Shown here: positions 3,020 to 40,784 of the stretch, in pieces | Layout: the number at the start of each line of letters is the position of its first letter | Position numbering within the stretch: the stretch's first letter is position 1 | From: a virus | Virus record (IMG/VR): IMGVR_UViG_3300030516_000004 | Length of the DNA: 64,000 nt | Strand: one strand, 5' to 3' | Made by a program: the position numbers and the translations under genes | Notes under the pieces: model-generated | Database searches by the model: none | The model's input: only the letters and a program-made list of their open reading frames with translations | What the model was told of the DNA's origin: nothing

Positions 3020-3029
3020 GAACTAAACC

Positions 3030-7690: not shown

Positions 7691-7692
7691 TT

Positions 7693-8933: not shown

Positions 8934-8943
8934 GGGTAAGGGT

Positions 8944-9381: not shown

Positions 9382-9387
9382 GGACTA

Positions 9388-9427: not shown

Positions 9428-9456
9428 GCGCTTGAGTAGTCAGGTTCACTAGTATT

Positions 9457-9484
9457 AAAAGCTCATCATTCGATGGGCTTTTTT
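9457..9484 (+). terminator. tR'-like terminator
   Basis: AAAAGCTCATC-attc-GATGGGCTTTT then T run. Confidence 0.85.
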
Positions 9485-9511
9485 GTTGCCTATCGAAAAG
9501 TGAGAAGAAGA

Positions 9512-9838
9512 ATGGAAAACCAACATAAGCATATCAAGGGTTATCGCGAGTTAAGTAAAGAAGAAATTGACTTAATGAATCGAATTAAAGAAAAAGGCGC
9601 TGAACTGCTTATGTTGCAGAATGAATTAGCAAATCGTTTAAGCACCGACTTAGAAGTTAAGCAGGCAGCAGCGAAGCGTGCACAATTAGCGCCAAATGAT
9701 TTTGCAAGTCCTGAATGGCAAGAGTTTGAACGCTTCAAAGAAGCTGAACCTTTACGTTGGGCCGCAATTGGTCGCACTGATATCCAAACAGGCATTATGG
9801 CTTTAGTTCGTGCTGTAGGACAGCAAGCAACTTTATAG
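9512..9838 (+). CDS. acb2: Anti-CBASS Acb2-like cyclic-oligonucleotide sponge
   Basis: MENQHKHIKGYRELSKEEIDLMNRIKEKG and EPLRWAAIGRTDIQTGIMALVRA match Acb2 motifs as I recall them; start ATG 9512. Confidence 0.85.
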   Translation: MENQHKHIKGYRELSKEEIDLMNRIKEKGAELLMLQNELANRLSTDLEVKQAAAKRAQLAPNDFASPEWQEFERFKEAEPLRWAAIGRTDIQTGIMALVRAVGQQATL

Positions 9839-9857
9839 GTGTTGCTAAGGAGGTCAC

Positions 9858-9971
9858 ATGCTCCGAATCATCAAGCAAGTATTCTGTTGGCATTGTTGGG
9901 AACATGAATTGGATTACAACAAAGACCCAATCAAAGAATGCAGAAAGTGTGGAAAGGTTAAAAGTTTATAA
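9858..9971 (+). CDS. 37-aa Cys/His zinc-binding microprotein (DUF1660-like)
   Basis: MLRIIKQVFCWHCWEHELDYNKDPIKECRKCGKVKSL; aaggaggt RBS. Confidence 0.75.
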   Translation: MLRIIKQVFCWHCWEHELDYNKDPIKECRKCGKVKSL

Positions 9972-9980
9972 AGTTTGTAT

Positions 9981-10084
9981 TGCAATGTGCCAGAGAGGTT
10001 TAATGGTGACATATACAAGACGAGGTGTGTTTAGGTATATGCTGAAATACCACCCCGCCACAGGTTCAAATCCTGTCTTTGCAA
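9981..10084 (+). ncRNA. tRNA-like RNA / pseudo-tRNA (class II D-arm, perfect T-arm, aberrant anticodon region)
   Basis: Acceptor TGCAATG/CTTTGCA, D-arm CCAG-AGAGGTTTAA-TGG, T-arm ACAGG-TTCAAAT-CCTGT; 52-nt middle; no encoded CCA. Confidence 0.7.
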
Positions 10085-10095
10085 TACTTTTTTAT

Positions 10096-10126
10096 AGCCC
10101 CACCGATTGGTGGGGTTTTCTTTTTT
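10096..10126 (+). terminator. Intrinsic terminator after the tRNA-like element
   Basis: gccccacc-gatt-ggtggggt followed by a T-rich tract. Confidence 0.8.
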
Positions 10127-10139
10127 GGAGAATAAGAAA

Positions 10140-10343
10140 ATGCGAATGAGTCGAGTATTGTTAGCTACAGCATTAGGAATGGCAGTAGCAAGACCACAGT
10201 TTGGAACCTTAAGCGCATTATCTGCCATGGGTGGTGAAACTTCTCCATTTGCATTTAAGCCGAAGCCAAATAAAAGCAAACCCAATAAATTAAGCCAAAA
10301 GAAGAAACGCCTTATTGCTCGTCGGCTAAATAAACATAAGTGA
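10140..10343 (+). CDS. Small protein with very basic C-terminus
   Basis: ggag RBS; KPKPNKSKPNKLSQKKKRLIARRLNKHK tail. Confidence 0.65.
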   Translation: MRMSRVLLATALGMAVARPQFGTLSALSAMGGETSPFAFKPKPNKSKPNKLSQKKKRLIARRLNKHK

Positions 10344-10350
10344 GCTGCGT

Positions 10351-10521
10351 ATGGACACAATCGAAGCGAAGAAGAATTTAAATGCATTGTGCAATGAAAT
10401 AGAAAAGCTACAGAACCTTTCACGTGGTTTGATGACAGCAAAAGAAATGCTTGATATTGACGCGAAGATAAAGCGACACAAAGACCAAGTGAAGAACATT
10501 AGAAGCAATCTTCATGTGTGA
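10351..10521 (+). CDS. 56-aa coiled-coil hypothetical protein
   Basis: Hand-translated MDTIEAKKNL...RSNLHV; overlaps the next start by 8 nt. Confidence 0.65.
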   Translation: MDTIEAKKNLNALCNEIEKLQNLSRGLMTAKEMLDIDAKIKRHKDQVKNIRSNLHV

Positions 10522-10792
10522 TTCAAAGCGATTGAAGGCTATTCGGTTGTTGCCTTGTGTAGTTTGTGGAAGATCGCCAGTAGATGCAGCACATAGCAAC
10601 CAAGGCGCCCATAATAAGGGATTAGGCATCAAGGCAGATGATAGTTATACAATCCCATTATGTAGGCAACATCACATCGAATATGACCAACTGAAAACAA
10701 TGACAAGAGAACAAGCGGTAGAATGGTTTGATCGAATGTTAGAAAAGACAGACCGCATGCTTAATTTAAATAACAATGAAGAGGTTTTCTAA
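10514..10792 (+). CDS. DUF968-like His-Cys (HNH-like) putative nuclease
   Basis: PCVVCG...DAAH...TIPLCRQHH motif. Confidence 0.75.
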   Translation: MCDSKRLKAIRLLPCVVCGRSPVDAAHSNQGAHNKGLGIKADDSYTIPLCRQHHIEYDQLKTMTREQAVEWFDRMLEKTDRMLNLNNNEEVF

Positions 10793-11019
10793 TGGGAACT
10801 AAAGCAACAAAAGCTAAAATGATTGAACGAGCATTCGAGTTCGCAGAAAAGGTTATTGCTGAAAACCAGTGCATCATAAATCATACCAATATCCCAGAAG
10901 TTGGAGCACGTGCTTCTGATCTGGTTGAATTAGCTAAATCATTTAAGCTTTTACTTTCGGATACACATGAAGATTTAATTGAGCTTGAAAATTACGGCAA
11001 TGATGATTATCGTGGTTAA
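10792..11019 (+). CDS. Hypothetical protein
   Basis: 75 aa, TAATG coupling. Confidence 0.7.
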   Translation: MGTKATKAKMIERAFEFAEKVIAENQCIINHTNIPEVGARASDLVELAKSFKLLLSDTHEDLIELENYGNDDYRG

Positions 11020-11123
11020 ACACCACATCTCGAGACTAACGTGAAAGACATCTATCTGTAATTAGGGATAGAGCAGTCTTAAGTCCTGAAATGCAGAGCC
11101 CGTCAGAAATGACGGGCTTTTTT
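11020..11123 (+). ncRNA. Candidate ~100-nt structured small RNA
   Basis: Upstream TTGAAA-17-TATCGT (10985-11013), nested stems, strong terminator at 11097-11123. Confidence 0.4.
11097..11123 (+). terminator. Intrinsic terminator
   Basis: AGCCCGTCA-GAAA-TGACGGGCT followed by T run. Confidence 0.85.
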
Positions 11124-11137
11124 ATTGAGGTGTCAAA

Positions 11138-11620
11138 ATGGAATCAAGATTCACTATTAAGAACCATTGCGACATCAACTATGTGACGAATTATTTAAAC
11201 AAGAACCATTCGAAGGCAGCGACTGAGGGTAAGCCTTTAGTTGTTACTATTAAACCTGATGATAGAAATAGATCTAAAGCGCAAAACAGATTGTATTGGG
11301 ATTGGCTGACAGAGTGGGCAAAGTTCCAAGGCTCAGACAAAGATTATGAGCATCTTTTCTTTAAATACACGTTGCTATCAAGAATCTTCTATCGAGATGG
11401 TGTAGGCGATTATCGCAAGACTTTCGACACTGTTAGAGCGCTAAAAGCAGAGAAACACCCCTTATATAATCAAGTGCGTGATAGCGTAACTACCCTTACA
11501 AGCACAAGAGATGCATCTACAAAGCAAATGTCAGAATACCTAAACGACATACATGCATTTTGCCTGAAACAAGGGTGTTATTTGGAAACGCCTGATGACC
11601 TTAAATATGCGTTGGAGTGA
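11138..11620 (+). CDS. ninB: NinB/Orf-like recombination protein
   Basis: KPLVVTIK...RSKAQNRLYW motif. Confidence 0.75.
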   Translation: MESRFTIKNHCDINYVTNYLNKNHSKAATEGKPLVVTIKPDDRNRSKAQNRLYWDWLTEWAKFQGSDKDYEHLFFKYTLLSRIFYRDGVGDYRKTFDTVRALKAEKHPLYNQVRDSVTTLTSTRDASTKQMSEYLNDIHAFCLKQGCYLETPDDLKYALE

Positions 11621-11877
11621 TTATGATTCCACTATATCCATTTCCACTTAATGAAGTCTGGAACAACTTGAGGAACCAAAAAATGCAAAAAACAAATGAA
11701 TCGGTTTTAGAGTGTGGGGCTATCCCGAAAGGCACAAAAGTTAAAATAGATGGCTGCCCATTTGTGTTGCAAGACGATGTGAAAGTCGCAGCATCGCAAG
11801 AAATCGTAGACCTAGCAATTAAAAACCAAAACGATTTCGATAATGGAATCGGTGTTATTGGTGAAAAAAGTAAGTAG
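11617..11877 (+). CDS. Hypothetical protein (start may be the internal MQKTNE)
   Basis: ORF preceding terS. Confidence 0.6.
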   Translation: MIMIPLYPFPLNEVWNNLRNQKMQKTNESVLECGAIPKGTKVKIDGCPFVLQDDVKVAASQEIVDLAIKNQNDFDNGIGVIGEKSK

Positions 11878-11884
11878 GTGTTAA

Positions 11885-12436
11885 ATGGAAGAACAAATCA
11901 AAGGCGCAGAACCCTTAAAGAATTTACGCCATGAAGAGTTCTGCCACGAATATTTAAAAACGCTTAGTCCGCAAGAGGCTGGCAAAACAGTAGGCTTTAA
12001 AACCCGTCAACATGCTTGGGATGTCTTGCAGCGTGAAGAAGTTGAAGAGCGCATTGCTTATTTGAATGGGCAGCGCTTAAACCGCATTGATATCGATGCA
12101 GATTATGTCTTGCGTCGTTTGGTTGAAATTGACCAAATGGATGTCTTAGACATTATGGATGATAAATTTTGTCTAAAACCTATTAGCGAATGGCCTAAAG
12201 TTTGGCGTCAGTTCGTTTCGAATATCGAGAACAATGAAGAGTTTGAAGGCTATGGTGAAGACCGTGAACAAAGCGGCTGGCTAAAGAAAATCAAATGGCC
12301 TGACAAAGTTAAAAACCTTGAGCTATTAGGAAAACATATTGCTGTTGGGGCTTTCAAGGACAAAGTGGAACATTCAGGAACGATTGAAATTCAGACTTTA
12401 TCTGAGTTAATGGATGAATTAAGCGAGGGTGATTAA
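11885..12436 (+). CDS. terS: Terminase small subunit
   Basis: HEEFCHEYL HTH, IKWPDKVKNLELLGKH motif, position. Confidence 0.92.
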   Translation: MEEQIKGAEPLKNLRHEEFCHEYLKTLSPQEAGKTVGFKTRQHAWDVLQREEVEERIAYLNGQRLNRIDIDADYVLRRLVEIDQMDVLDIMDDKFCLKPISEWPKVWRQFVSNIENNEEFEGYGEDREQSGWLKKIKWPDKVKNLELLGKHIAVGAFKDKVEHSGTIEIQTLSELMDELSEGD

Positions 12437-13945: not shown

Positions 13946-15351
13946 TGCCAGTAAATACTGAACATCAAGCTTACGCGGACATGAAAGAGCGTTGGAAAAC
14001 TATCAACGATGTCTGTGAAGGCTCAACCAAAATTAAAAAACGTGGTGAGCATTACTTACCTAAACCAAATGTTACTGCTGATGCTACTCAAAATGACCAG
14101 TATTATTTAGCTTATTTAACACGAGCTGTGTTTTACGAGATTTCAAAAGACACACTAAATAAGATGGTGGGAGTAGTATTTGCCGAAGATCCAACATTCG
14201 AACCGGATGGAATGGATTTTCTTAAGTACGATGCAGATGGGACAGGTAAATCAATTTACCAAGTGGGGCAATCATGCCTTCAAGGTTTGTTAAAACATGC
14301 TCGTGGTGGTCTATTTGTTGATTATCCAACTACTGATGGCAATGTATCTGTCCAGCAAGCGGAAAACTTAGGCATTCGGCCAACAATCGTTTTCTATGAT
14401 GCTCTAAATATTATTAACTGGAGCGTTAAACGTGTTGGATCTGTTTATAAACCCGATTTAGTCGTTTTATATGAAAAATCTACAGTAAAAGATCCTGAAG
14501 ATGAGTTCGCTAAAAAAGAGGTAAATACTTACCGGGTATTACGTCTTGATGAGAACAATGAATATAACGTTCAAGTTTATTCGGATCAGTCAGGTGATTT
14601 ACAGGGTGGTGAAATTAACTACCCAACTAATTCATTAGGCCGAAGATGGAATGAAATTCCTTTTATTCCTTTGGGGGCTTTGGCTAATGATTGGAATATT
14701 GACTCTATCCCACTAGAACCAATCGTCACAATGAACTTGGCCCATTATCAAAATAGCGCGAGCTATGAAGAGATGGTGTTTATCTGTGGCCAGGCCCAAC
14801 CGGTTATTAATGAGCTTGATGAAGGTTGGCGTGACTGGTTGCAGAAAAATGGTGTCCGCTTAGGTTCTAAGAATCCTTTAATGCTTCCGAAAGGCTCATC
14901 GTTTGACTACAAACAAGTCACTGAAAGTACCTTAGCGAAACAGGCTATGGATGCTAAAGAAAAGTACATGCAGGCGATGGGGGCCAAGATTCTTGAGACT
15001 GAACAAGTCAATAAGACAGCTACCCAATCAAATAATGAAAAGCTTGCTCAGTACAGCGTACTTTCTTTGTGTGTAGCGAATACCAATGAGGCGATGGAAT
15101 ACGCGATTAAATGGTGTGCTGCATACTACGGAAGTGGCTCTAAAGCTAAGCTAACCATTAAGCAAGACTTCGCCAAAGGCAAGATTGATCTTGATACGCT
15201 TAAGTTCTATTGGGAAATGGTGCTTGCTAATCGCATGAGTATGGAAACCTTCCATGAGTTGCTAACAACTGGGAAAGTTCCAGAAATTAGCTATGAAAAA
15301 GAGCAGCTACGAATTGAAACCGAAAATACCAATAGGCCTATGGTGATTTAA
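13945..15351 (+). CDS. Portal protein (DUF4055-like)
   Basis: 468 aa directly after terL; YLPK..., RAVFY motifs. Confidence 0.9.
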   Translation: MPVNTEHQAYADMKERWKTINDVCEGSTKIKKRGEHYLPKPNVTADATQNDQYYLAYLTRAVFYEISKDTLNKMVGVVFAEDPTFEPDGMDFLKYDADGTGKSIYQVGQSCLQGLLKHARGGLFVDYPTTDGNVSVQQAENLGIRPTIVFYDALNIINWSVKRVGSVYKPDLVVLYEKSTVKDPEDEFAKKEVNTYRVLRLDENNEYNVQVYSDQSGDLQGGEINYPTNSLGRRWNEIPFIPLGALANDWNIDSIPLEPIVTMNLAHYQNSASYEEMVFICGQAQPVINELDEGWRDWLQKNGVRLGSKNPLMLPKGSSFDYKQVTESTLAKQAMDAKEKYMQAMGAKILETEQVNKTATQSNNEKLAQYSVLSLCVANTNEAMEYAIKWCAAYYGSGSKAKLTIKQDFAKGKIDLDTLKFYWEMVLANRMSMETFHELLTTGKVPEISYEKEQLRIETENTNRPMVI

Positions 15352-28879: not shown

Positions 28880-29196
28880 ACCTTGACCATCTCCATAATC
28901 GCGTCTGGACCAAAGACTACACATGCAATGAGTTCTTATGTGAAGCATGGAAAGATGTTACTGGTCGTGATCTTAAAAAACGTCTAGAACGATTTTTAAA
29001 TGGGAAGGGCAGCTTTAAGAAACTTCAGGAACCTATTTCCCCCTGTATTGTCTTTTTTACTAATGGCAAAAAAAGCTCAACACATGTTGGGTTTTTTTAT
29101 TGCGACAAGGTTTTGCACTTAACAGGCCGTGGTGTCCAGTTCATACCACTTGAGATTATTTCTATGAATTTTCGGGAAACGAGGTTTTATAAATGA
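28876..29196 (+). CDS. NlpC/P60-like tail assembly protein (gpK-like)
   Basis: YTCNEF Cys, THVGFF His, VLHL His. Confidence 0.75.
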   Translation: MNLDHLHNRVWTKDYTCNEFLCEAWKDVTGRDLKKRLERFLNGKGSFKKLQEPISPCIVFFTNGKKSSTHVGFFYCDKVLHLTGRGVQFIPLEIISMNFRETRFYK

Positions 29197-32015
29197 GTTT
29201 GAAAAAAGTCATCATCGTTCCTGATGTTTATGATCGATCTACATGGTCAGAAGCAGAAGTTGAAGATGTTCTATCTTATATCTACCAACAGTTTGATGTA
29301 TGGCCTGAGAATGCAAAAATCTATCATGATCAAATTGCTGAAACTTGTGATGTAACTCCAAACCATCCAAAGAAAATTAATGCCCAACTTGAGCACATCC
29401 AAACTTTGGAAGGCACATTCTATGTAGTTATTGAGCCTGCTTGGTTGCAAGTTCTTTATTATGCAATTGTGGCAATTATGGCGGCATACAGTATTTATAC
29501 TGTCTTAACTATGCCTAAACCACAGTCGCCTACAGTTGGTTCATCTAACAACGAACTAGCACAACGCTCAAACCAAGCTAGATTAAATGGCCGCATACCA
29601 GACCTTTTTGGTAGAGCGCGTTCATACCCTGATTTAATTGCAGAAGCTTACACCATCTATAAAGATGGTATTGAAATTGAAGAATGCATGATGTGTATTG
29701 GTCGTGGCTATTACCAAATATTCGACATGCGAGATGGTGATACTGATGTAGCGAATATTGCTGGCACATCTGTTTCAGTTTATGACCCATTTACTTCGAT
29801 TGTTGGAACTCCGCTTTATCAAGTTGGCGATACCTTCACTGAATTGCCAAAGTATGTTCGAAAATCAGATTCTATCAATGGTCAGACTATCGAAATGCCT
29901 AATAGTGCAGTGCTCGAGTCGAGTAATGTGTGGTTTCAAAGCCCTAACTTAATTAAATCAGCAGGTTTAGATTTTACACAGTACTTTGCTGCTACCGACC
30001 GTATTGCTTTAAGTGGTGCTGTGTATGGTGTTCAAGATGTGAACCTTTCGGGCTCAATAATGGTAAATGAAGACAAGATGGTTATCATCGAGTCGTCAAC
30101 CAATATTGATAATCCGAACTTGTTTAAAGGTTTGCAGCTCACTGGTGCATTAGTGGATATCGAGACCACTACAGGAACCCCGCCAGTAACAGAGACAAAC
30201 ACTCGTGATTTATCTGGTCAATATGTGGTTTCAGGTGTGACTAAGACAGTTATTGCAGGTGGTTTTCATTACGAGATTACCTTGTCAAATCCTGAAAAAG
30301 TTAACGCTAACTGGCAGTATGTTAATAACAGCTACACCATTACGGCAGGTGCTGTTCTAAACCGAAATTCAAACTCAATAACTCTTGATGATACCTACAC
30401 AATCAATAGCGTTACAGCCGATACGATTGCGTTAGTCAATCCATCAGCCATTAACAGTGATTGGGATAAGTTGCTGACACTTCCAAATCAAAGTACGCAA
30501 GGACAAGAAGTTCTAGTCCGTTTTGATGCGGTAAGTTCTAAGTATGTCGGTTGGTTTAACTTCGATATGCCAGAAGCTACCCAAGCTGTGTTTAACTTCT
30601 TCTTTCCTAATGGCCTGTTTTATCAAGACAGTAAAGGCGGTGTGTGGGAGGAGAAAATCACAGTAATTATTGAGTTGCAGGCGATTGATAGTAATGGTGA
30701 TCCAGTCGGATCTATTACTACCATTAATCAAGAGATTCGAGCTAATAACAAGTCACAGTTTGGTAAAACGATTTACATTGATCTGCCTACGGCTGGCTCG
30801 TTCCGCTTCCGGTTAAGCCGTACAACAGCAACTCAAGCGGGTAAGACACAAGATACTTGTAAAATTAAGTCTGTGTATGGCATGGCTGATTCAACGATAA
30901 GCCAATATGGCAACGTCACAGTACTACGCTCTCGCACAGTAGCCACTGATGGCGCCTTATCCATCAAAGAACGTAAGTTGAACTGCTTAGTAAATCGCAA
31001 GCTTCCACTTGATGGCACAGGCCCTTTGCAAGTCACACGCTCAGCAGGGCAAGCACTTATTAATTTGGCTTTAGATGAACACATTGGCCGCCGAACCAGT
31101 GCAGAGGTGGACATTGCACAAATCAATGCTGAGATTGACAAAGTAAATGCATATTTTGGATCGGTCCTTATGTCTGAGTTTAATTACACGATTGATGATG
31201 ACAATCTAAGCTTTGAAGAAATTGCAGGGATGGTAGCAAGTTCGGCTTTCTGTGAGCCGTACCGGTTCGGAAGTCTAACCCGTCTCAAGTTTGAGCAACC
31301 GCAAGAAAATGCAGTCTTGCTTTTTAATCATCGAAACAAAGTGCCATTAACTGAAAAAAGGTCTTATACATTCGGTGTGCAGAAAGACTATGACGGGGTA
31401 GAGCTTGAATATACTTCTGATGTCGACGATGCACGTGTGAAGTACATCATTCCAGAAGATATTACGCCTAAGAATCCCTTGAAGATTACTACTACAGGTA
31501 TTCGAAATGAAGCCCAAGCGAAAGTAAGGGCGTGGCGTGAGTGGAATAAGCTTCGCTACAAGTACATGTCTTGTGAGGTTGAAGTTCTAGATGAGTCTGA
31601 ATTACTGATTCGCAATGACCGTATTTTGATTGCTGACAACACAGTTGTAGATACTCAAGACGGGGAAGTTGAAGCAGTAGATGGATTGATTATGCAAACC
31701 TCTCAGCCATGCACATTTGATGTAGGTAGGGATTACTTCATTCACTTGCAGATATCAAATGCAACTGTAGATGTAGTGCCATGCACAGGAGGTACTGATA
31801 AATATCATGTAGTGCTTAGCCGTCCACCTGTGCAGCCACTCGTTGTAAGCGACGATCGATACGTTAAAACACTCTACACATTAGTTCGTGCTGATCAAAC
31901 AGAAACACAGGCATTCATGCTTGAAGAACTTACCCCTCAAACTCAAATGACCAACACGCTGAAAGCATCTAACTACGATGCTCGATTCTATGAGCGTGAC
32001 CATGACTTTATTTAA
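29193..32015 (+). CDS. Tail tip / host-specificity protein (gpJ-like)
   Basis: 940 aa; NQARLNGRIPDLFG..YPDL motif; position. Confidence 0.88.
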   Translation: MSLKKVIIVPDVYDRSTWSEAEVEDVLSYIYQQFDVWPENAKIYHDQIAETCDVTPNHPKKINAQLEHIQTLEGTFYVVIEPAWLQVLYYAIVAIMAAYSIYTVLTMPKPQSPTVGSSNNELAQRSNQARLNGRIPDLFGRARSYPDLIAEAYTIYKDGIEIEECMMCIGRGYYQIFDMRDGDTDVANIAGTSVSVYDPFTSIVGTPLYQVGDTFTELPKYVRKSDSINGQTIEMPNSAVLESSNVWFQSPNLIKSAGLDFTQYFAATDRIALSGAVYGVQDVNLSGSIMVNEDKMVIIESSTNIDNPNLFKGLQLTGALVDIETTTGTPPVTETNTRDLSGQYVVSGVTKTVIAGGFHYEITLSNPEKVNANWQYVNNSYTITAGAVLNRNSNSITLDDTYTINSVTADTIALVNPSAINSDWDKLLTLPNQSTQGQEVLVRFDAVSSKYVGWFNFDMPEATQAVFNFFFPNGLFYQDSKGGVWEEKITVIIELQAIDSNGDPVGSITTINQEIRANNKSQFGKTIYIDLPTAGSFRFRLSRTTATQAGKTQDTCKIKSVYGMADSTISQYGNVTVLRSRTVATDGALSIKERKLNCLVNRKLPLDGTGPLQVTRSAGQALINLALDEHIGRRTSAEVDIAQINAEIDKVNAYFGSVLMSEFNYTIDDDNLSFEEIAGMVASSAFCEPYRFGSLTRLKFEQPQENAVLLFNHRNKVPLTEKRSYTFGVQKDYDGVELEYTSDVDDARVKYIIPEDITPKNPLKITTTGIRNEAQAKVRAWREWNKLRYKYMSCEVEVLDESELLIRNDRILIADNTVVDTQDGEVEAVDGLIMQTSQPCTFDVGRDYFIHLQISNATVDVVPCTGGTDKYHVVLSRPPVQPLVVSDDRYVKTLYTLVRADQTETQAFMLEELTPQTQMTNTLKASNYDARFYERDHDFI

Positions 32016-32032: not shown

Positions 32033-32057
32033 AAGCCCCTTTATCGGGGCTTTTTTT
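32033..32057 (+). terminator. Intrinsic terminator
   Basis: AAGCCCC-tttatc-GGGGCTT-T5. Confidence 0.8.
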
Positions 32058-32074: not shown

Positions 32075-33850
32075 ATGGCTGAAGAAATCATTACTCGCGA
32101 AGAGCTCGTAGATGCAAAGGTTGATGCAAAAGACTTAGGGGAGTGTGTCAATGGTAATGAAGCTGGTGTAGTAACACCACGTTATGGTGATGCATATCCG
32201 ACTTTGCCAAAAGCTATTGAAAAATTAGAGAATACAGGTGGCTACATTACCGTAAGTTCACTTGCTAAACTCAATACCATTACGCCGCAATATAGTTATC
32301 AAGTGGCGCGCACAGACGATACGGGAGATGAGTATCGCTGGAATCCTACTGCAACCCCAACTCCAAAATGGGAGCCAACTGGTCGTAATTTCACTAAAGA
32401 AACAAAAGATTATGTAGATCAGGTTTCAGGAACAATCTCCGAGAAAAAAGTTTCCGAGTTTATAGTTAAAACACCTTCAAAAATTCTCCATGCGCTTTGT
32501 GATGCTAATGGAGATGTATATGCTTTTTTCGATGAAGATGGGCACTTATATACAACAGACCTACCTGACACTGTACAGAATGAAATATTAAGCTTGAAGG
32601 AAAAAACAAATTTAGTTCTGACAAAGGTGGAAACTGACCTTTATCATCTACTCGATAAAGATGGAAACTTAGTCTCAAAAATTGATAAAGACGGGCTTTT
32701 ATATTTAACAGGTATTGATAGCTCAGTGCAGGAGTATCTCCTAAACATCAATACAAGCACTGGTTCATTATCAACTCCGAAGTCATATAAAACTAAATCT
32801 GACTTATATACACCTGAAGTTATAAGCGCTTTACAATCAAATGAGATGAAAGCCCCAATTGGCCGCGGATTACTTCAACAACAATATTATTTAGGTAGCG
32901 ATTGGTTAAAGAATCTATCTGCGCCTGTGTCTTCAAATCGTATTGTGGTAGGTGCTTACAACGATAAAGGCGATAAGTCTAATTGGGTTGCTGATTCTGG
33001 GGTTGTGCACCCAAATGTTATTAAATTTGATGAGCCAGTATGTGGGTATAAATACTGGATGGGTATTAATCCATACACAAACACCAATGAAGATTATGAA
33101 TTGCCATACATCTATGGTTCTAATTCCGATAACTTGGACAATTGGACTTTAATCCCAGACTTTCCACAACCGTTTGATGTCGATCCACCTGACACTGGCG
33201 GTGTTTTAAGTGGTCATCTTTCAGATTCGTTCTTTACATATGACCCTGTTAATGCAGAGCTTTGGTTTTGCTGGCGTCAAACACGATATTATTCAGCTGA
33301 TCGCAATCGCGCTAATGCGACAAATACTTTCGTGGGTCGAAAAACTAAAGATGGAACTGTTTGGTCATCTGACATTATTACTATTTATCCAACCTATACA
33401 ATTAATAATGATTCGAAGCTTAGCCCATCAATTTTATATAACGCAAATGACGGCTTATTTTATCTTTATTACATCAACCTAAATGGCTCAATGTCATGTG
33501 AAGTAACTGAAGATTTAAATCATCCAAACTGGCGAAAATTTGGTGACTTTCAGTTGCCATTCACAGCGTGGCATCTAGAAATGAAATGGCTCGGTAGTTC
33601 GCTTGTTGCTCTTATACATAGCGACACAATTGATCAGTTGTTTGTTGGGGTTTCTACGGACATGAAGAATTTTAAATGGAGTCAAGGGATCTTCAATGCT
33701 GCTACCAATTTGTATAAGTCATCATTCATTCCTATTTTTAATGACAATAACCAAGTCTCATTAAAAATTGTATATACAACCGATCAAAACAGCACCCCGA
33801 AATGGCAACTCCACACTACACAAACAAATTTTTCAAGCATTGAGGCATAA
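32075..33850 (+). CDS. Tail spike / receptor-binding protein, C-terminal propeller-like glycosidase region
   Basis: N-terminal tail anchor (DAKVDAKDL..VNG..TPRYG..YPTL); VHPNV...YWMGINPY...ELPYIYGS motif. Confidence 0.75.
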   Translation: MAEEIITREELVDAKVDAKDLGECVNGNEAGVVTPRYGDAYPTLPKAIEKLENTGGYITVSSLAKLNTITPQYSYQVARTDDTGDEYRWNPTATPTPKWEPTGRNFTKETKDYVDQVSGTISEKKVSEFIVKTPSKILHALCDANGDVYAFFDEDGHLYTTDLPDTVQNEILSLKEKTNLVLTKVETDLYHLLDKDGNLVSKIDKDGLLYLTGIDSSVQEYLLNINTSTGSLSTPKSYKTKSDLYTPEVISALQSNEMKAPIGRGLLQQQYYLGSDWLKNLSAPVSSNRIVVGAYNDKGDKSNWVADSGVVHPNVIKFDEPVCGYKYWMGINPYTNTNEDYELPYIYGSNSDNLDNWTLIPDFPQPFDVDPPDTGGVLSGHLSDSFFTYDPVNAELWFCWRQTRYYSADRNRANATNTFVGRKTKDGTVWSSDIITIYPTYTINNDSKLSPSILYNANDGLFYLYYINLNGSMSCEVTEDLNHPNWRKFGDFQLPFTAWHLEMKWLGSSLVALIHSDTIDQLFVGVSTDMKNFKWSQGIFNAATNLYKSSFIPIFNDNNQVSLKIVYTTDQNSTPKWQLHTTQTNFSSIEA

Positions 33851-33853
33851 AAT

Positions 33854-34918
33854 ATGGCTACAGTAATTAAATCAAATTCTGTCGCGAGTCGATATATTGC
33901 AAGTGGATTGCAGCTCTCAGCACCAATCGATTTCAAGTCAAAACTGGATTTTTCATCCGAGAAATATATTCTTAATGGAGTAGAAACTGTACTTGCTCAA
34001 GTAGTCACAACTATCCGCGCAAGTGTGGGTGGATACCTTGACAATGATGGCGCATATATGACTGCTGCTGCGAATACACCGCGCATTCATAATGACCCTG
34101 TAGCTGGAAAAGGTTTACTATGTGAAAGTGCTGCTACAAATGTACTTGCGAATCCTTCTGCTCCAGCAACTCAGACTGTTTCAATTTCACCAACTGTTGG
34201 TAACTATGTTGTTCTTCAAGTGTGGGGTTCTGGTTCTGCTTCACTTAACCTGGGAGGAGTGGAAAAGGGTGTGGCTAACCAATCTGCACCTTTAGTTATT
34301 GTGCCAACCGCCTCAGGTGCAACTAATGCAATTGTGACTGTAACAGGAACACTAACGCACTTCCAATTATTCATATCCAACTCAGCACAAGTAAGACAAA
34401 CAAAAATCTTAACCACAAGCTCTGATGATGTTCATACATTTAGACCAAGTTTGCCTAATCCTAAACGCGGCACATTATTATTGAAGCGCTCTGAAATTGA
34501 GTGGAAGAATCCTTCAACAACAGTTGGAGCTCGTGTTTTTAATATTGTCCAGCTTCTCAATACAACATCCGGTCTTTTCAGTCTTGGGACTCAAAAGGGT
34601 ATTGCATCACCCAAAAAGGCATATTACACACGTATCACTAATGACAATACTGGTGTTGTTCCGATTAGCTTTGGCACTGCATTAGCGAAAGAAGTGATTG
34701 CAATTTGCTATGACATAGATGCAAAAACGTTAAAGATTCTAGAAAACGGGATTATTAATAATTTCACACTGCCGAACTATACTGATACAGCTGGATTTGA
34801 GCGCTATATTCTAGGTACTACGGCAGCGCAATATTGGAGTAATTACAATCAAATTATACAAGAGCTTTATGTGTATGACCGCATTCTAACTGACACAGAA
34901 TTACTTCAAATCATCTAG
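33854..34918 (+). CDS. Second receptor-binding/fibre protein, probable C-terminal ConA/LamG-like domain
   Basis: RASVGGY..NTPR..GLLCE...TN motif; IQELYVYDRILTDTEL end. Confidence 0.65.
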   Translation: MATVIKSNSVASRYIASGLQLSAPIDFKSKLDFSSEKYILNGVETVLAQVVTTIRASVGGYLDNDGAYMTAAANTPRIHNDPVAGKGLLCESAATNVLANPSAPATQTVSISPTVGNYVVLQVWGSGSASLNLGGVEKGVANQSAPLVIVPTASGATNAIVTVTGTLTHFQLFISNSAQVRQTKILTTSSDDVHTFRPSLPNPKRGTLLLKRSEIEWKNPSTTVGARVFNIVQLLNTTSGLFSLGTQKGIASPKKAYYTRITNDNTGVVPISFGTALAKEVIAICYDIDAKTLKILENGIINNFTLPNYTDTAGFERYILGTTAAQYWSNYNQIIQELYVYDRILTDTELLQII

Positions 34919-34945
34919 TATTTTTATATAATATGAGTGTTGTTT

Positions 34946-34973
34946 TTGAATAAGTTCGGATCTGTTATAGAAT
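34946..34973 (+). promoter_or_regulatory. Candidate promoter of the acetyltransferase cassette (TTGAAT-16-TAGAAT)
   Basis: In the 86-bp AT-rich gap before 35005. Confidence 0.5.
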
Positions 34974-35004
34974 CTTGGCTAACAAATAACAACACCTTAT
35001 TTTC

Positions 35005-36957
35005 ATGAAATACAGAACAGAAATAGATGGGTTGCGAGCAATCGCAGTTTTATTAGTTATATTCAATCACTTAGGTATTACCTTTTTTAGTGGTGGATAT
35101 GTAGGCGTTGACGTTTTCTTTGTTATTTCTGGATTTTTAATTACTTCAATTATTAGTAAGGAAATAACTGAGAAAACATTTGCATTTAAAAACTTCTATA
35201 AAAAACGGATATTAAGATTAGCTCCTGCATATTTTCTAGTGATTTTATGCTGTTTCCTTTTCTCATATTTTTTATTAGCTCCAATGGAGTTAGTATCTTT
35301 TTATAAAAGCGTGATGTATTCGCTAGTTTTCGCATCTAACTTTTTTATGTGGAAAGAAGTTGGTGGCTATTTCTCTGCAAATGCGGAATACATTCCACTT
35401 CTGCATTTGTGGTCATTGGGTGTAGAAGAGCAGTTCTACATTATATGGCCAACAGTTTTGATGATCATGCTTGCATGGTTTAAACGTTGGACTGGTTTAT
35501 TGATTGCTTTAGGTGTAATCCTAGGTTGTGTTTTAGCACATCTACTCTCGATCAAAGCGCCAGCAATGTCTTACTTTTTATTGCCGGCTCGTGCATTTGA
35601 GTTGATGATTGGCGCTGCAATCGTATTTATTAAGCCCAACAACTTTAAGTCTAGTAATGCAAATCTCTTTGCTGCATTTGGCTTGATCATGATTGTTTTT
35701 TCTAGTTTCTATCTGACTTCTGAAAGCATTTTCCCAGGTCTTTATGCTTTACTTCCGTGTGTTGGTACAGCTCTTATTATCTACAGTTTAAAAGGCCATG
35801 ATGGGATTATTAAGAAATTCCTTTCACTAAATATTATGTCATTCTTCGGGAAAATTTCTTACCCGCTTTACTTGTGGCACTGGCCTCTGATCGTATTTTA
35901 TAAGATCAGATTTGGCGAGCTTTCTTATCTAAGCATGGCAGGTTTGATGATTGCCATGACTTTGCTGTCATATCTAACCTATGAGTACGTCGAAAGAAAG
36001 ATTCAAAACAAGTTTAAGGCTTCAAATCCTGCGCGCATTGTTTTGAAAGGTTATTTAATACCTGTATTGGCATTTGCTGCCTTTAGCGGCTTTGTTGTAT
36101 ATGAAGATGGGTTAAAGCAACGTTTTAACAGCAATGTGCCAGAAATAGAAAATAGTATTAATGCAGCTTCGCATAAGATACGTGGGAAGTGTTTATATGC
36201 GCCAGCAGGCGAGTTGCCGCCTAAAGATGCATGTTCCCTAGGTGTTGATAATGCAGAAACAGAAGTTCTGCTTGTAGGCGACTCTCATGCAAATCATTAC
36301 TCAAATATGATAAATGTGATGCTAAAAGATGCTCATAAGAGGGGTTATGAGATTGATCAAAACTCAACTTTCTTTATGCCAGATGTTGAGCGTTATGTCC
36401 TTAAAGACGGAACAAAGAAGTTAGCACCTGAATTTAAAACACGTAATGATTTAATCAAGCATCATCTGACTGAGCATAAGTACAAGTATGTTATTTTGGC
36501 TGGCTCTTATGCTGATAACTTTATTGTCAGTCATTTTGAAGATGGAACAGGCCGAAGTAGTGCTGATGTAATGGAATCTGGTTTAGATCGAGCTATAGAT
36601 CTTGTTGAGAATACTGGTGCCAAAGCATTAATTATCAAGGGTATGCCGAAAGTTCAAGAGCTTGATCAGAATTGCCCACTTCGTAAAGAAATGTTTGGTG
36701 ATATTGATTGCGGCTTTGATAGAAAGATTCACGATGAGCATTTTAGGGAATGGAATGAAATGCTAAATCGACTTAAAGCTAAGCACAAAAATCTTGAAGT
36801 GATAGATATTGAGCCTTATTTCTGTGACGCAGAAAAATGCTACCTAGATCGTAATGGAACGCCTCTTTACATCGACCAAAAGCACATCAATTATGTTGCA
36901 TCAGGTGAGATTGGGAATTGGTATATTAAGACAAACAGAAATCATTTTAAGGAGTAG
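35005..36957 (+). CDS. Acyltransferase-3 plus SGNH O-acetyltransferase (OafA-like)
   Basis: IDGLRAIAV, GVDVFFVISGFLIT, HLWSLGVEEQFY, GDSHA Ser, DQKH DxxH. Confidence 0.95.
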   Translation: MKYRTEIDGLRAIAVLLVIFNHLGITFFSGGYVGVDVFFVISGFLITSIISKEITEKTFAFKNFYKKRILRLAPAYFLVILCCFLFSYFLLAPMELVSFYKSVMYSLVFASNFFMWKEVGGYFSANAEYIPLLHLWSLGVEEQFYIIWPTVLMIMLAWFKRWTGLLIALGVILGCVLAHLLSIKAPAMSYFLLPARAFELMIGAAIVFIKPNNFKSSNANLFAAFGLIMIVFSSFYLTSESIFPGLYALLPCVGTALIIYSLKGHDGIIKKFLSLNIMSFFGKISYPLYLWHWPLIVFYKIRFGELSYLSMAGLMIAMTLLSYLTYEYVERKIQNKFKASNPARIVLKGYLIPVLAFAAFSGFVVYEDGLKQRFNSNVPEIENSINAASHKIRGKCLYAPAGELPPKDACSLGVDNAETEVLLVGDSHANHYSNMINVMLKDAHKRGYEIDQNSTFFMPDVERYVLKDGTKKLAPEFKTRNDLIKHHLTEHKYKYVILAGSYADNFIVSHFEDGTGRSSADVMESGLDRAIDLVENTGAKALIIKGMPKVQELDQNCPLRKEMFGDIDCGFDRKIHDEHFREWNEMLNRLKAKHKNLEVIDIEPYFCDAEKCYLDRNGTPLYIDQKHINYVASGEIGNWYIKTNRNHFKE

Positions 36958-36959
36958 TA

Positions 36960-37139
36960 ATGCAACAGACTTTGCTAACTTTATTCGTGGTTCTACTAAT
37001 TCTCATTGCTGTAATGTGTTTAGGGATAGGTATTTACCAATTAGATTATTTTTTCATATTTATAGGGATATGCTTAATTGCAGCGAGCTACCTATTAAAA
37101 CGTGAATTTAAGCTCTATTTTTTCTTTTGGAAGGAATAA
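36960..37139 (+). CDS. 59-aa two-TM membrane peptide, co-transcribed with the acetyltransferase
   Basis: Hand-translated MQQTLLTLFVVLLILIAVMCLGIGIYQLDYFFIFIGICLIAASYLLKREFKLYFFFWKE; AAGGAG 5 nt before ATG; ends before the terminator. Confidence 0.75.
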   Translation: MQQTLLTLFVVLLILIAVMCLGIGIYQLDYFFIFIGICLIAASYLLKREFKLYFFFWKE

Positions 37140-37154
37140 AGCCAAAACCATACA

Positions 37155-37178
37155 GGCCCCTCTACAGGGGCTTTTTTA
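37155..37178 (+). terminator. Terminator closing the acetyltransferase cassette
   Basis: GGCCCCT-ctac-AGGGGCT-T run. Confidence 0.8.
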
Positions 37179-37201: not shown

Positions 37202-37480
37202 ATGCAAGAGCATGAAAAAACACTTATGACATTGTTAATTGTTGGAGGGCTTATTGGTATGGGTCGTCTATTAGTTTCAAATGAGCCTCTGTCATGGCGC
37301 ATGATCATTGGTCGAACGATTTTAGGCTCTGCCACATCAACAGTTGCAGGCTTAATTCTAATTCAATTCCCTGATATTTCACCGGTTGCCTTAGTCGGTA
37401 TTGCATGTGCTTTAGGTATTTTAGGAAGTACTTACATTGAGGAATACCTTAAAAAGAATATTAATAAGTGGGGTAAGTGA
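37202..37480 (+). CDS. Holin
   Basis: Three hydrophobic segments, basic C-terminus, overlaps the endolysin start; ATG 37202 with ggggg RBS. Confidence 0.85.
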   Translation: MQEHEKTLMTLLIVGGLIGMGRLLVSNEPLSWRMIIGRTILGSATSTVAGLILIQFPDISPVALVGIACALGILGSTYIEEYLKKNINKWGK

Positions 37481-37923
37481 TGAAGACAAGTAATATGGGA
37501 TTAAACCTCATCAAAGGCTTTGAGGGTAAGCGCCTTTCCGCATACGATGATGGTGTGGGCATTTGGACTATTGGTTTTGGCACCATTAAATATCCAAATG
37601 GTATCCGAGTTAAAAAAGGTGATACTTGCACTGAACAACAAGCAGAAAATTATCTAAGAAATGACTTAGCCAAGTTTGAAACAGCTATCAATAAACTTGT
37701 TAAAGTCCCACTTGCTCAGAATCAATTTGATGCTCTAGCGTCTTTTACATATAACCTTGGTGAAACTAATTTAGCTAATTCAACCTTATTGAGGAAACTT
37801 AATAAAGGTGACTATCAAGGCGCTGCTGACCAATTCCTTGTGTGGAATAAGGCGGGCAGCAAAGTTATGAAAGGTCTAGTTCGTCGCCGAGAAGCAGAAC
37901 GTGCACTCTTTTTAAAGAAGTAA
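37477..37923 (+). CDS. Endolysin, GH24 lysozyme
   Basis: E-x8-D-x5-T triad (EGKRLSAYDDGVGIWTIG), GLVRRREAE. Confidence 0.95.
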   Translation: MMKTSNMGLNLIKGFEGKRLSAYDDGVGIWTIGFGTIKYPNGIRVKKGDTCTEQQAENYLRNDLAKFETAINKLVKVPLAQNQFDALASFTYNLGETNLANSTLLRKLNKGDYQGAADQFLVWNKAGSKVMKGLVRRREAERALFLKK

Positions 37924-38050: not shown

Positions 38051-39343
38051 TTATTTATTAATTTTGGGCAAGCCTTCCCAGCTAAAATAATTCTGCGTTA
38101 GTTTGTCTCGAGTCATTGCCCAACCTCTATTGGGCAGCCTACAACTACCTACCGCAATTTTGTGTTTCCCAAACTTCTCGACTACTTGTTCTATGGTAGT
38201 CATTAAATTCTCATCCTTTTCGACCTTATTCCAGTCTGTTAGCAGATCGTAGTTAAAGGTATCTTTAGGCTCCAAGCCTGTCAAAATCACCCCGCATTTT
38301 TTATATTCAATTCCTCTCGCATATAGATGTCTCATTAAAAAAGTGGCTATCTGCACCATCTTCAAAACATTGTCAGTTGGCACACTAACCGGAAGAGACT
38401 GTGATCTATTAAAGAAAGGCCTGTGCTTGTCGAATGGATTTGATTGGGCAAAAACGATAATACAGCCGCACAGCAATCTATCTTTTCTTAACCGGACCAC
38501 GGCATTTTGCATGTAGAGTGAAACAGCTTCTTGTAGGTCGATGAGCTCAGTAACTTTCTGACCGAATGATTTAGAGGAAATGATCTGCTTTTTGCTTGGC
38601 GGTGTATGTTCAATCTCAATGCATGAAATGCCTTGCAGTTCGTAGACTGTACGGGCCATCACAATAGAAAAGTGCTTCTGCATTTCTCTAGGCTCAGTGC
38701 AAGCTAGATCTAGTACAGTATGAATGCCCATGCCATTTAACTTTTTAGTATGCTGCCTTCCAACACCCCAAACCTCTGATACATCTATAGAGGATAGATA
38801 GGACTCTTTATTACAAGGATCCATAGCAACTAAATTACATACACCATCAAATGCTTTATTCTTCTTTGCAATGTGGTTTGCTATTTTTGCCTCAGTCTTT
38901 GATCTGCCTATTCCAATGCAAACTGGAAGGCCAATCCATTGCCATATACGGGCCTTCATATGTTGGCAGTAAGCGGTTAGATCATAATTATTAAAATAGG
39001 CTGTTAGATCTAGAAAGCATTCATCAATAGAGTAGACCTCTTGCTCGCCCTCGGCTACATAGTGCCTTAGAATATTCATAAATCTGCGGCTCATCTCAGC
39101 ATAGACACTATAGTTGCTCGAGAGTACTACTACATTATGTCTTTCTACAATGTCGCGAATCTGAAAGAGGGGAACACCCATCTTGATGCCAAGATCTTTA
39201 GCTTCTTGTGATCTGGCAACTGCACAGCCGTCGTTATTGCTGAGGACAATGACGGGCCGGTTGTTCAGTTCAGGCTGAAAGAATCTCTCACAACTGACAT
39301 AACAGTTGTTGACATCCACTAATGCAAAAATTCGCTCTCTCAT
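38051..39343 (-). CDS. umuC: Y-family translesion polymerase, Pol V UmuC-like
   Basis: ALVDVNNCYVSCE, VVLSNNDGC, YSIDECFLD, UmuC-type C-terminus. Confidence 0.95.
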   Translation of the reverse strand: MRERIFALVDVNNCYVSCERFFQPELNNRPVIVLSNNDGCAVARSQEAKDLGIKMGVPLFQIRDIVERHNVVVLSSNYSVYAEMSRRFMNILRHYVAEGEQEVYSIDECFLDLTAYFNNYDLTAYCQHMKARIWQWIGLPVCIGIGRSKTEAKIANHIAKKNKAFDGVCNLVAMDPCNKESYLSSIDVSEVWGVGRQHTKKLNGMGIHTVLDLACTEPREMQKHFSIVMARTVYELQGISCIEIEHTPPSKKQIISSKSFGQKVTELIDLQEAVSLYMQNAVVRLRKDRLLCGCIIVFAQSNPFDKHRPFFNRSQSLPVSVPTDNVLKMVQIATFLMRHLYARGIEYKKCGVILTGLEPKDTFNYDLLTDWNKVEKDENLMTTIEQVVEKFGKHKIAVGSCRLPNRGWAMTRDKLTQNYFSWEGLPKINK

Positions 39344-39562: not shown

Positions 39563-39789
39563 TTACGCCAAATCTACGCCAAAATATAGATAAGCTATTG
39601 ATTTTATAAAATGAATTGGTGCGCCCGGCGGGCACTTGACTATAAATAACAACTTCCTAGGTTTTTCTATCTTTTCTTATTATTTCATATAAAACAAACA
39701 AATGCCAAATTGGCTATTAATCTGTACTTCTATTATTTCGTATTTTTTCCTATTATTTCAATTACCACAATTACGCCAGACTTACGCCA
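39563..39789. other. attP: core 39617-39632 (tRNA 3' end CCCGCCGGGCGCACCA, minus strand), arm sites, IHF site
   Basis: TACGCCA tandem arms at 39563/39574 and 39771/39782; IHF consensus AATCAATAGCTTA at 39591-39603; next to int. Confidence 0.8.
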
Positions 39790-39797
39790 GAAAAATT

Positions 39798-40784
39798 ATG
39801 GCTTCTTTTAGACAACGAAACGATACATGGCGAGCCGAGATAAGTGTAAACGGAATTCGCGAAAGTGCAACCTTTGATACAAAAGCGCAGGCTAGGGCTT
39901 GGGCATCCAAACGCGAGACACAATTACGTGAACAATCGCATGGTAAGCTTCCTGACCATTCTTTTTTAGAAGCAATTGAACGCTATCTAAGTGAAGTGAG
40001 TGTTAAAAAGAAAACTCATGAGAATGAAGTTAAGAGAATGGCCTTCTTTAAACGTGAGTATAAAAAGCTTTGTCAAAAGCCATTAGCCAAAGTTACAACG
40101 GACGATTTAGTACAATGGCGTGACTCACGATTGAAAGAAGTGCAGGGCGCTACCGTTAGACGTGAAGCTAATATATTGGCGTCTTTATTTACCGTCGCTC
40201 GAAAAGAATGGAAGTGGATAAGGGAGTCGCCTATGGCAGATTTAACTTTGCCACCTCCTTCTAAGCACCGGGATAGACGAATTGCGCAAGATGAAATTGA
40301 TAGATTATGTCTTGCAGCCAATTGGGATAATAATGTTCCGGTAAACTCAACTCAGCAAATTATTGTTGCTTTCTTATTTGCTATTGAAACTGCAATGCGT
40401 GCAGGAGAGATTGTTGGCTTAACTTGGGATCGAGTCTATTTAAAAGATAGATATCTTGTTTTGACTGAAACAAAGAATGGTACTAAGCGAAATGTACCGT
40501 TATCCAAGCGTGCAGTTGAGTTGCTAACTTTATTAAAAGGTCTGGATAGAAAACGAGTCTTCACTTGTAACACTCAAAGTTTTGATACGCTGTGGCGTAA
40601 GATAAGGGATAGATGCCAAATCACTGATTTACACTTTCATGATACTCGCCATGAAGCATGTACACGCCTTGCAAGGAAATTAGAAGTATTAGACTTGGCT
40701 CGGATGATTGGGCATAAAGATTTAAGAAGTTTAATGATTTACTACAACGCTACTGCAAGCGAAATTGCAACGAGGCTAGATTAG
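39798..40784 (+). CDS. int: Tyrosine integrase
   Basis: TAMRAGE Arg, TKNG Lys, HDTRH, GHKD, IYY Tyr; start ATG 39798. Confidence 0.95.
   Translation: MASFRQRNDTWRAEISVNGIRESATFDTKAQARAWASKRETQLREQSHGKLPDHSFLEAIERYLSEVSVKKKTHENEVKRMAFFKREYKKLCQKPLAKVTTDDLVQWRDSRLKEVQGATVRREANILASLFTVARKEWKWIRESPMADLTLPPPSKHRDRRIAQDEIDRLCLAANWDNNVPVNSTQQIIVAFLFAIETAMRAGEIVGLTWDRVYLKDRYLVLTETKNGTKRNVPLSKRAVELLTLLKGLDRKRVFTCNTQSFDTLWRKIRDRCQITDLHFHDTRHEACTRLARKLEVLDLARMIGHKDLRSLMIYYNATASEIATRLD

Follow-up and report, generated by a model that had tools for sequence, protein, structure and literature searches.

What does a temperate phage gain from carrying, next to the genes for its receptor-binding proteins (RBPs), an enzyme that probably modifies the surface sugars of its host? 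The question is raised by a 64,000-nucleotide (nt) stretch of viral DNA (IMG/VR record IMGVR_UViG_3300030516_000004), hereafter the window, in which positions 32075-37178 carry two RBP genes followed by a cassette encoding an acyltransferase-3 (AT3) protein with a fused SGNH domain. We posit that this cassette serves receptor masking, that is, that acetylation of the surface glycan reduces recognition by the phage's own RBP pair, a reading to which we give a probability of roughly 0.55 and which draws on the analogy with Oac of Shigella phage Sf6, with Pseudomonas phage D3 and with Atr29, Atr30 and Atr44 of Acinetobacter prophages.

An AT3-SGNH acyltransferase and its probable substrate

The 650-amino-acid (aa) product of the cassette's first gene is, by its domains and motifs, an intact AT3 plus fused-SGNH O-acyltransferase. 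It matches PF01757 (Acyl_transf_3) over residues 6-326 with 108.7 bits against a cut-off of 31, PF19040 (fused SGNH) over residues 396-635 with 113.2 bits against a cut-off of 27, and phrog_6705, named "O-antigen acetylase", at 2e-154. Its AT3 domain contains R11-X10-H22 and R68-I-L-R71, instances of the R/K-X10-H and RxxR motifs rated essential for AT3 enzymes (PMC9558356), and its SGNH domain contains G425-D-S427-H428 and the DxxH motif D624-Q-K-H627. All of these motifs are invariant in 25 relatives, and the first-pass annotation was thus right in calling an intact AT3-SGNH acetyltransferase with GDSH and DxxH catalytic motifs. A crude hydropathy scan finds about 9-11 peaks, including one at residues 345-363 ahead of the SGNH domain, where 10 transmembrane helices and an 11th, which would put the SGNH domain in the periplasm, are expected of such enzymes. 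The gene and its surroundings are arranged as follows (coordinates in the window, strand, feature).

29193-32015, +, gpJ-like tail tip or central fibre protein, 940 aa (PF24801 FNIII-A_GpJ; phrog_469, 5e-261)
32033-32052, +, hairpin and T-run terminator after gpJ (-12.4 kcal/mol, z -3.0), the 5' edge of the variable RBP region
32075-33850, +, RBP ORF591, 591 aa: anchor, two short repeats and C-terminal propeller
33854-34918, +, second tail-fibre protein ORF354, 354 aa: two ConA-like/LamG beta-sandwich domains
34919-35004, +, AT-rich intergenic gap of 86 nt (25.6% GC) with two sigma70-like consensus matches
35005-36957, +, AT3-SGNH O-acyltransferase, 650 aa (AT3 residues 6-326, SGNH residues 396-635)
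36960-37139, +, hydrophobic membrane ORF of 59 aa with an AAGGAG ribosome-binding site (RBS), the cassette's second gene
37154-37173, +, hairpin and T-run terminator before the holin (-12.7 kcal/mol), closing the cassette and the variable region
37203-37480 (true start 37203), +, holin (PF04550/PF00959 matches in the holin-endolysin pair)
37477-37923, +, endolysin (PF04550/PF00959 matches in the holin-endolysin pair), the conserved 3' neighbour of the module

The closest named relative of the acetylase is an acyltransferase of Acinetobacter junii (90% identity), and its clade, taken at 73% identity or more, occurs in A. junii, A. lactucae, A. baumannii and metagenomes, the three species being the nearest named sources. 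A tblastn search of a 50,697-record phage collection listed 30 matches, all below 60% identity and none from an Acinetobacter record. A metagenome scan with the acetylase alignment, whose motifs are generic, returned only relatives of at most 42% identity; scans of genome contigs, made with the acetylase alignment and with that of the RBP, yielded no confirmed locus, and searches of the PDB sequences with the acetylase, as a single sequence and as a profile, gave no match.

By analogy with characterized members of the superfamily, the enzyme probably acetylates host surface sugars. AT3-SGNH proteins move the acetyl group through the inner membrane and, on the periplasmic side, attach it to a surface glycan (PMC9558356). 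In a lysogen, the AT3 domain would thus carry acetyl groups across the inner membrane and the periplasmic SGNH domain would place them on either the capsule K-unit or the lipooligosaccharide (LOS). The added O-acetyl group would then get in the way of the phage's own RBP pair, either in binding or in catalysis, so that lysogens and cell debris would stop adsorbing this phage and others with the same RBP. A direct model for such an effect is Sf6, where acetylation by Oac sterically hinders the phage's own endorhamnosidase, leading to superinfection immunity (PMC9558356).

A target other than a surface glycan also has to be considered. The peptidoglycan O-acetylases OatA/Adr are themselves AT3-SGNH proteins (PMC9558356), and the gene lies immediately 5' of those for the holin and endolysin, where an OatA-style activity could modulate lysis or lysozyme sensitivity. 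We hold this to be very improbable: the phage-borne relatives are annotated as O-antigen acetylases, and are known as such in D3 and Salmonella phages; the Gram-negative system detailed in the review, that of Neisseria, uses PatA/PatB (PMC9558356); and a terminator separates the gene from the holin.

A deacetylase-like propeller and a lectin as the receptor-binding pair

Two RBP genes do follow the gpJ-like gene, as had been annotated, both products being of tail or RBP type by fold. The first, ORF591, comprises an N-terminal anchor (residues 1 to about 125), two short repeats (residues ~137-211) and a C-terminal propeller (residues ~281-591), and matches no Pfam or NCBIfam model. In a search of 5.8 billion proteins, its first ~120 residues were 50-70% identical to those of many Acinetobacter proteins with differing C-termini, among them BNR sialidases, SGNH/GDSL esterases, sialate O-acetylesterases, pyocin knobs and M14 peptidases. 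Modularity of this sort is typical of a tail-docking anchor to which interchangeable receptor-binding enzymes are fused; the docking site of the RBP is presumably the gpJ-like protein. The anchor, encoded at 32075-32449 of the window (residues 1-125), suggests that a single docking domain serves a large set of exchangeable RBPs.

An AlphaFold (AF2) model of ORF591, built on 34 homologues and with a mean predicted local distance difference test (pLDDT) score of 82, predicts a beta-propeller of about five blades at residues 281-591. The structure closest to it is that of FpGalNAcDeAc, the N-acetylgalactosamine (GalNAc) deacetylase of Flavonifractor plautii (PDB 6N1A/6N1B; Foldseek E 1.6e-13), with a VIA-align Z of 29.5 against 6n1a and a root-mean-square deviation of 2.8 Å over 290 residues at 21% identity. 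The next-best propeller folds, GH62, GH43 and GH130, reach a Z of ~21, 8 Z units lower. Searching the PDB sequences with the family profile independently recovers FpGalNAcDeAc at E 6e-11 as the sole strong match. The alignment pairs H312, E342, D384, H500 and H381 of ORF591 with H54, E84, D120, H272 and H117 of 6n1a; the first four occur without exception in the 34 family members, H381 in 30 of them. We take E64, H97, D100 and H252 to be the active-site residues of FpGalNAcDeAc, a numbering that fits the aligned positions if a 20-residue tag is presumed. The likeness consists of a five-bladed propeller with aligned H, E, D, H and H residues, the difference being that FpGalNAcDeAc is a secreted enzyme of a gut bacterium, with a carbohydrate-binding module (CBM), and not a virion protein.

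Hence, the C-terminal domain of ORF591 is, going by the model, most likely a deacetylase-like propeller that modifies or binds capsule, and the first-pass annotation's "spike", in the sense of a depolymerase spike, has to be given up. A beta-helix depolymerase is ruled out by the modelled propeller fold. We also rejected reading the propeller primarily as a sialidase or a GH43 glycosidase: the match to the deacetylase lies 8 Z higher, and the chains that come next among the PDB sequences, of GH43/xylanase type, reach E 0.001-0.013. Sialidases among the Foldseek matches are weaker (E ~1e-7, TM-score ~0.3), the model has about five blades against the six of sialidases, and no match to Pfam BNR was found in ORF591. 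The NCBI name "sialidase family" carried by its relatives (P0146, P0395) is not supported as the best reading. In the literature searched, we found no description of phage RBPs with a propeller homologous to a carbohydrate de-N-acetylase.

The second protein, ORF354, is modelled at a pLDDT of 90 as two ConA-like/LamG sandwiches; these resemble the sialic-acid-binding CBM40 modules and LamG (E ~1e-5) and match viral ConA-like lectin and tail fibre proteins (E ~1e-11), making "lectin" a fair label for the predicted fold. Neither protein found a tblastn match in the 50,697 phage records, nor did the whole of 32075-37178 by megablast.

The deacetylase kinship of the propeller raises the converse of masking: the propeller might remove or need an acetyl group, with the acetylase supplying the glycan that it recognises, for example by rendering lysogens recognisable to kin or by tuning the capsule. 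Apart from the closest relative of ORF591 being a deacetylase, sister RBPs on the same anchor bear SGNH or SASA esterase domains, and there are known esterase RBPs with a need for O-acetyl groups, namely gp41 of Aristophanes (PMC8471582) and gp63.1 of G7C (cited in PMC13123978). Such a role would come at a cost, as increased adsorption to immune lysogens wastes virions. Moreover, FpGalNAcDeAc is an N-deacetylase and AT3-SGNH enzymes make O-esters; the two reactions are therefore not inverse. We know of no precedent for such a receptor-making role and think it quite unlikely.

An inserted cassette in a hairpin-bounded region

Comparing the window with itself, positions i and i+43,325 agree at each of the 20,675 bases that overlap. 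This makes the window a repeated 43.3-kb unit, namely a circular or wrapped phage genome of 43,325 bp read 1.48 times; features at or below position 20,675 occur in it twice. The head and tail genes share ~86% DNA identity with Acinetobacter phage vB_AbaS_TRS1, and an integrase gene lies at 39702-40784. The source is a temperate Acinetobacter siphophage, its host being assigned at the level of the genus, and the region under study is the host-range and lysogenic-conversion end of its late operon. The gpJ-like gene sits 3' of the gene for the tape measure and of three small tail genes. An orphan umuC gene for a Y-family polymerase (38051-39343, - strand) stands between the lysis and integrase genes.

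The same slot, after a gpJ 72-75% identical to that of the window, is found in the Acinetobacter phages fLi-Aba02, fLi-Aba03 and fEg-Aba01 (72% for gp20 of fLi-Aba02/03). Downstream of gpJ, fLi-Aba02 has a hairpin, then gp21 (SGNH esterase-like) and gp22 (ConA-like lectin), then another hairpin and the holin (PMC11058221). The RBS context and the hairpin after gpJ match those of the window, and both phages have an anchor-fused carbohydrate-modifying enzyme paired with a lectin; fLi-Aba02 differs in having the esterase in place of the propeller and in lacking the acetyltransferase cassette, the lectin leading directly to the hairpin and the holin. As hairpins stand on both sides in the two phages, the variable RBP region is hairpin-bounded in both. 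These hairpins, at 32033-32052 and 37154-37173 in the window and at 11877-11897 and 14566-14587 in fLi-Aba02 (L169), are of a similar GCCCC...GGGGC form with T-runs. We suspect that, besides terminating transcription, the two flanking hairpins may double as recombination boundaries.

The acetylase cassette itself occupies 2.2 kb between the lectin stop codon and the pre-holin hairpin. Against a genome average of 40.4%, the GC content falls to 36.5% in the acetylase gene, 30.6% in the small ORF and 25.6% in the gap before them. In eight IMG/VR loci with propeller RBPs of 30-49% identity, the lectin gene adjoins the RBP gene in all eight and an AT3 gene is present in none. Because fLi-Aba02 and these eight loci lack the cassette, and because of its low GC, we conclude that it is an insertion with the anatomy of a moron.

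The regulatory signals of the cassette agree with the first-pass annotation in part. It had been described as terminator-bounded, and a terminator does close it at 37154-37173; none lies between the lectin and acetylase genes, the upstream one at 32033-32052 preceding the RBP genes. Since that terminator is directly 3' of gpJ, the RBP genes need read-through or antitermination. The position of the 3' terminator is kept in L001, a 4.7-kb IMG/VR contig with an acetylase of 73% identity, where the stem has a different sequence with compensatory changes. The claim that the cassette is separately promoted fares less well. It goes back to two sigma70-like matches, at 34905-34932 and 34946-34973, each agreeing with the consensus at 9-10 of 12 positions; the region holds fewer promoter-like sites than its shuffled versions (13 against 21.1), and the matches in the gap are not conserved in L001, the only relative with readable upstream DNA.

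The second gene of the cassette begins with an ATG 2 nt past the acetylase stop codon, behind its AAGGAG RBS. A 58-aa homologue stands at the equivalent place in L001 (2061-2237), and neither PHROGs nor NCBIfam offers a family match for the 59-aa product. We tried the ORF as a general partner of AT3-SGNH enzymes and rejected the notion: any hydrophobic ORF at that place was found in only six of 123 loci, and the homologue in L001 alone.

Linkage, exchange and known parallels

We asked how regularly the acetylase is accompanied by an RBP of this kind. For most contigs the co-location of the two was derived from equal longest-contig sizes reported for each protein and not read from DNA. As a positive control for this size matching, RBP-lectin pairs were recovered at 86886, 35195, 34950 and 60413 (adjacent locus tags A1Z38_RS14745/14740). 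By this measure, members of the acetylase clade (>=73% identity) share a contig with a propeller RBP in ~16 cases (contigs 183769, 171141, 67056, 35195, 34950, 9370, 14867, 5106, 9967, 161424, 3392646, 14040, 5639, 132204 and 18328, plus the window's own 86886). Six longer acetylase contigs have no RBP match. In three GenBank genomes the accessions of the two proteins differ by exactly two (QUY35614/QUY35616 and RSE33371/RSE33373 in A. junii; MDC5466621/MDC5466619 in A. baumannii), so that exactly one gene, presumably that of the lectin, lies between acetylase and RBP. Every resolved contig of the acetylase clade bears a propeller-type RBP. Conversely, among anchor-sharing RBPs with other C-termini no representative matches an acetylase contig, which is weak evidence as only cluster representatives were compared.

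In several of these contigs the anchor has been swapped, residues 1-120 of the RBP being only 13-25% identical where the propeller stays above 80% and the acetylase at 90% or more. Identity to the window over residues 1-120 is 3-23% in contigs 35195 and 5106 and 27-43% in contig 9370; beyond residue 240 the same three contigs are 63-100% identical, mostly at 80% or more. A breakpoint near RBP residue 120 allows the distal RBP to move onto different tails along with the lectin and the acetylase, and a swapped anchor with a kept propeller and acetylase is the pattern expected from exchange of these three as a block. We therefore envisage that the genes between this breakpoint and the pre-holin terminator would often move together, not as an obligate unit. 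Over 11 RBP-acetylase pairs, the identity matrices of propeller and acetylase correlate (Mantel r 0.54, p ~0.02) and those of anchor and acetylase do not significantly so (r 0.21); with contigs that are few and related, these statistics are indicative only.

The first-pass annotation had proposed that spike, lectin and acetylase are exchanged as one matched lock-and-key module, with co-variation of spike and acetylase alleles as a check. Of this proposal, physical linkage and co-transfer are supported. A strict matching of alleles does not emerge, the correlation of propeller with acetylase being broken by two discordant groups, and propeller RBPs are commonly found without the acetylase.

An IMG/VR contig of 64.5% GC, clearly from another host (L067), repeats the gene order of the window, with a J-like gene (3659-6988), a propeller RBP (7069-8823, 27% identity), a lectin (8832-9941) and an AT3-SGNH gene (9995-11953). 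We considered ancient common descent of the two modules and rejected it, the L067 acetylase being no closer than any other viral AT3-SGNH protein. In two further contigs (L061, L081), a propeller-bearing tail protein is followed by a lysin and then an AT3-SGNH gene. The ~40% GC contig L061 has, at 9977-12035, an AT3-SGNH gene of 33.8% GC and then a 63-aa ORF of 29% GC, 3' of a 972-aa propeller tail protein and the lysin.

Several observations weigh against masking as the reason for the linkage. Regardless of RBP type, many of the 80 viral AT3-SGNH loci sit within a few kb of gpJ, lysin, umuC or integrase genes. In L001 the cassette is followed by NlpC/P60 minor tail and J-like tail genes (2286-4663) in place of lysis genes, and is therefore found in at least two genomic contexts. 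The eight propeller-RBP loci described above have the lectin and no AT3 gene, and a large A. baumannii propeller-RBP cluster, one member of which occurs on 188 contigs, matches no acetylase contig. Co-variation, taken over 11 non-independent contigs, is partial, and two groups are clearly discordant: in A. junii contigs an acetylase of 86-90% identity goes with a propeller of 45-47%, and in contig 5106 a propeller of 80-86% goes with an acetylase of 73%. To these are added the size-based derivation of most co-locations and a promoter support that consists of consensus matches, expression in the lysogen being assumed.

The main rival explanation is a hitchhiking moron, whose acetylase would give the lysogen a general benefit against unrelated phages, antibodies or complement with no specific tie to the phage's own RBP. 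The late-operon end would be a tolerated insertion slot, and co-travel would follow from breakpoints in the RBP anchor and the lysis genes. In many unrelated phages, AT3-SGNH morons are neighbours of genes for tail fibres, lysin, umuC or integrase, so position alone may reflect an insertion hot spot; this end of temperate phage genomes appears to be a general landing place. Homologues of umuC also adjoin AT3-SGNH genes in viral contigs L010/L011, L020 and L022. The discordant alleles, the frequent propeller RBPs without an acetylase and the second context in L001 all fit such an origin, and the linkage is accounted for as well by hitchhiking between recombination hot spots as by functional matching. 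What speaks against it is the propeller RBP on all resolved acetylase-clade contigs, with no match among representatives with other C-termini (these being representatives only), and the recurrence of the four-gene order in an independent high-GC phage. We accordingly see hitchhiking as a serious contender that is nonetheless less probable than receptor masking.

A bolder form of the masking proposal can be sketched, which we offer as speculation that is probably wrong in at least some of its parts. ORF591 would be the first virion-borne member of the FpGalNAcDeAc family, a receptor-binding enzyme that de-N-acetylates an amino sugar of the Acinetobacter capsule and leaves the polymer uncut, and the AT3-SGNH enzyme would O-acetylate the same or a neighbouring residue to block it. 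Propeller, lectin and acetylase together would make up an "acetyl-code" lock-and-key module. Acinetobacter prophages would exchange it en bloc behind one tail anchor or another, and a phage of a high-GC host would have put such a module together on its own.

Carrying a conversion acetyltransferase beside its RBP genes is, in itself, a well-known textbook way for a phage to mask its own receptor. In the window a glycan-modifying gene adjoins the RBP genes of a temperate phage across an 86-nt gap, as in the pairs of Sf6, D3, BTP1 and CUS-3 type. Sf6, with its Oac (OacA) and tailspike, is likewise a temperate phage with an acyltransferase-3 enzyme, and its mechanism is the one that we propose for the window. 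It differs in that Oac is AT3-only, acts on O-antigen rhamnose and is paired with a beta-helix glycosidase RBP, whereas the window has an AT3-SGNH enzyme, a deacetylase-like propeller with a lectin and a capsule/LOS host, masking here being only proposed. The D3 conversion unit (iap, wzy-beta, oac) includes a small membrane peptide. D3 and the tailspike/acetylase pairs of the YA3/Ab31 group share with the window an AT3-SGNH O-antigen acetylase, ~29-37% identical to that of the window; gene order and RBP type differ, and no wzy is seen in the window's cassette, the rest of the genome not having been searched. An Iap-like identity of the 59-aa ORF finds no match in PHROGs or NCBIfam.

Closer to the present host, the prophage enzymes Atr29 and Atr30 O-acetylate the K46 and K5 capsules of A. 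baumannii (PMC6586298), and Atr44 has been linked to K58 (PMC13228068). These come from Acinetobacter prophages, some of them TRS1-like as is the window's phage, and 4-O-acetylate the pseudaminic or legionaminic acid (Pse/Leg) of the capsule (PMC6586298, PMC13228068). The enzyme of the window differs as a 650-aa AT3-SGNH protein of another clade; linkage to RBPs was not analysed for the Atr enzymes. At 1047 bp (~348 aa), atr29 is too short to encode a fused SGNH domain. In Escherichia coli K1, the endosialidase tailspike of prophage CUS-3 recognises the capsule that its NeuO enzyme acetylates. NeuO, a polysialic acid O-acetyltransferase, acts on the capsule (PMC3046976); it is unlike the window's enzyme in being a soluble, phase-variable acetyltransferase of the left-handed beta-helix fold and not an AT3-SGNH protein. 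Pairings of this kind are actively discussed for Klebsiella and Acinetobacter prophages (PMC13123978, PMC13228068).

Against this background, three aspects of the locus are new: an AT3-SGNH clade with no Acinetobacter record among the matches listed in the phage collection; the consistent association of this clade with a propeller and lectin RBP pair; and the homology of the propeller with a carbohydrate de-N-acetylase, an unusual trait in a recognition protein. Which phages, depolymerases and antibodies are effective against Acinetobacter depends on its capsule type, and prophage genes outside the K locus can alter that type unnoticed. The module would bring an AT3-SGNH clade to the few capsule modifiers listed for Acinetobacter prophages, and it points to a class of prophage RBPs, combining a deacetylase-like propeller with a lectin, that is now annotated as "hypothetical" or "sialidase". 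If it is true that the RBP enzyme and the acetylase share a sugar, the locus would represent a compact system in which to study receptor masking and the modular exchange of host range.

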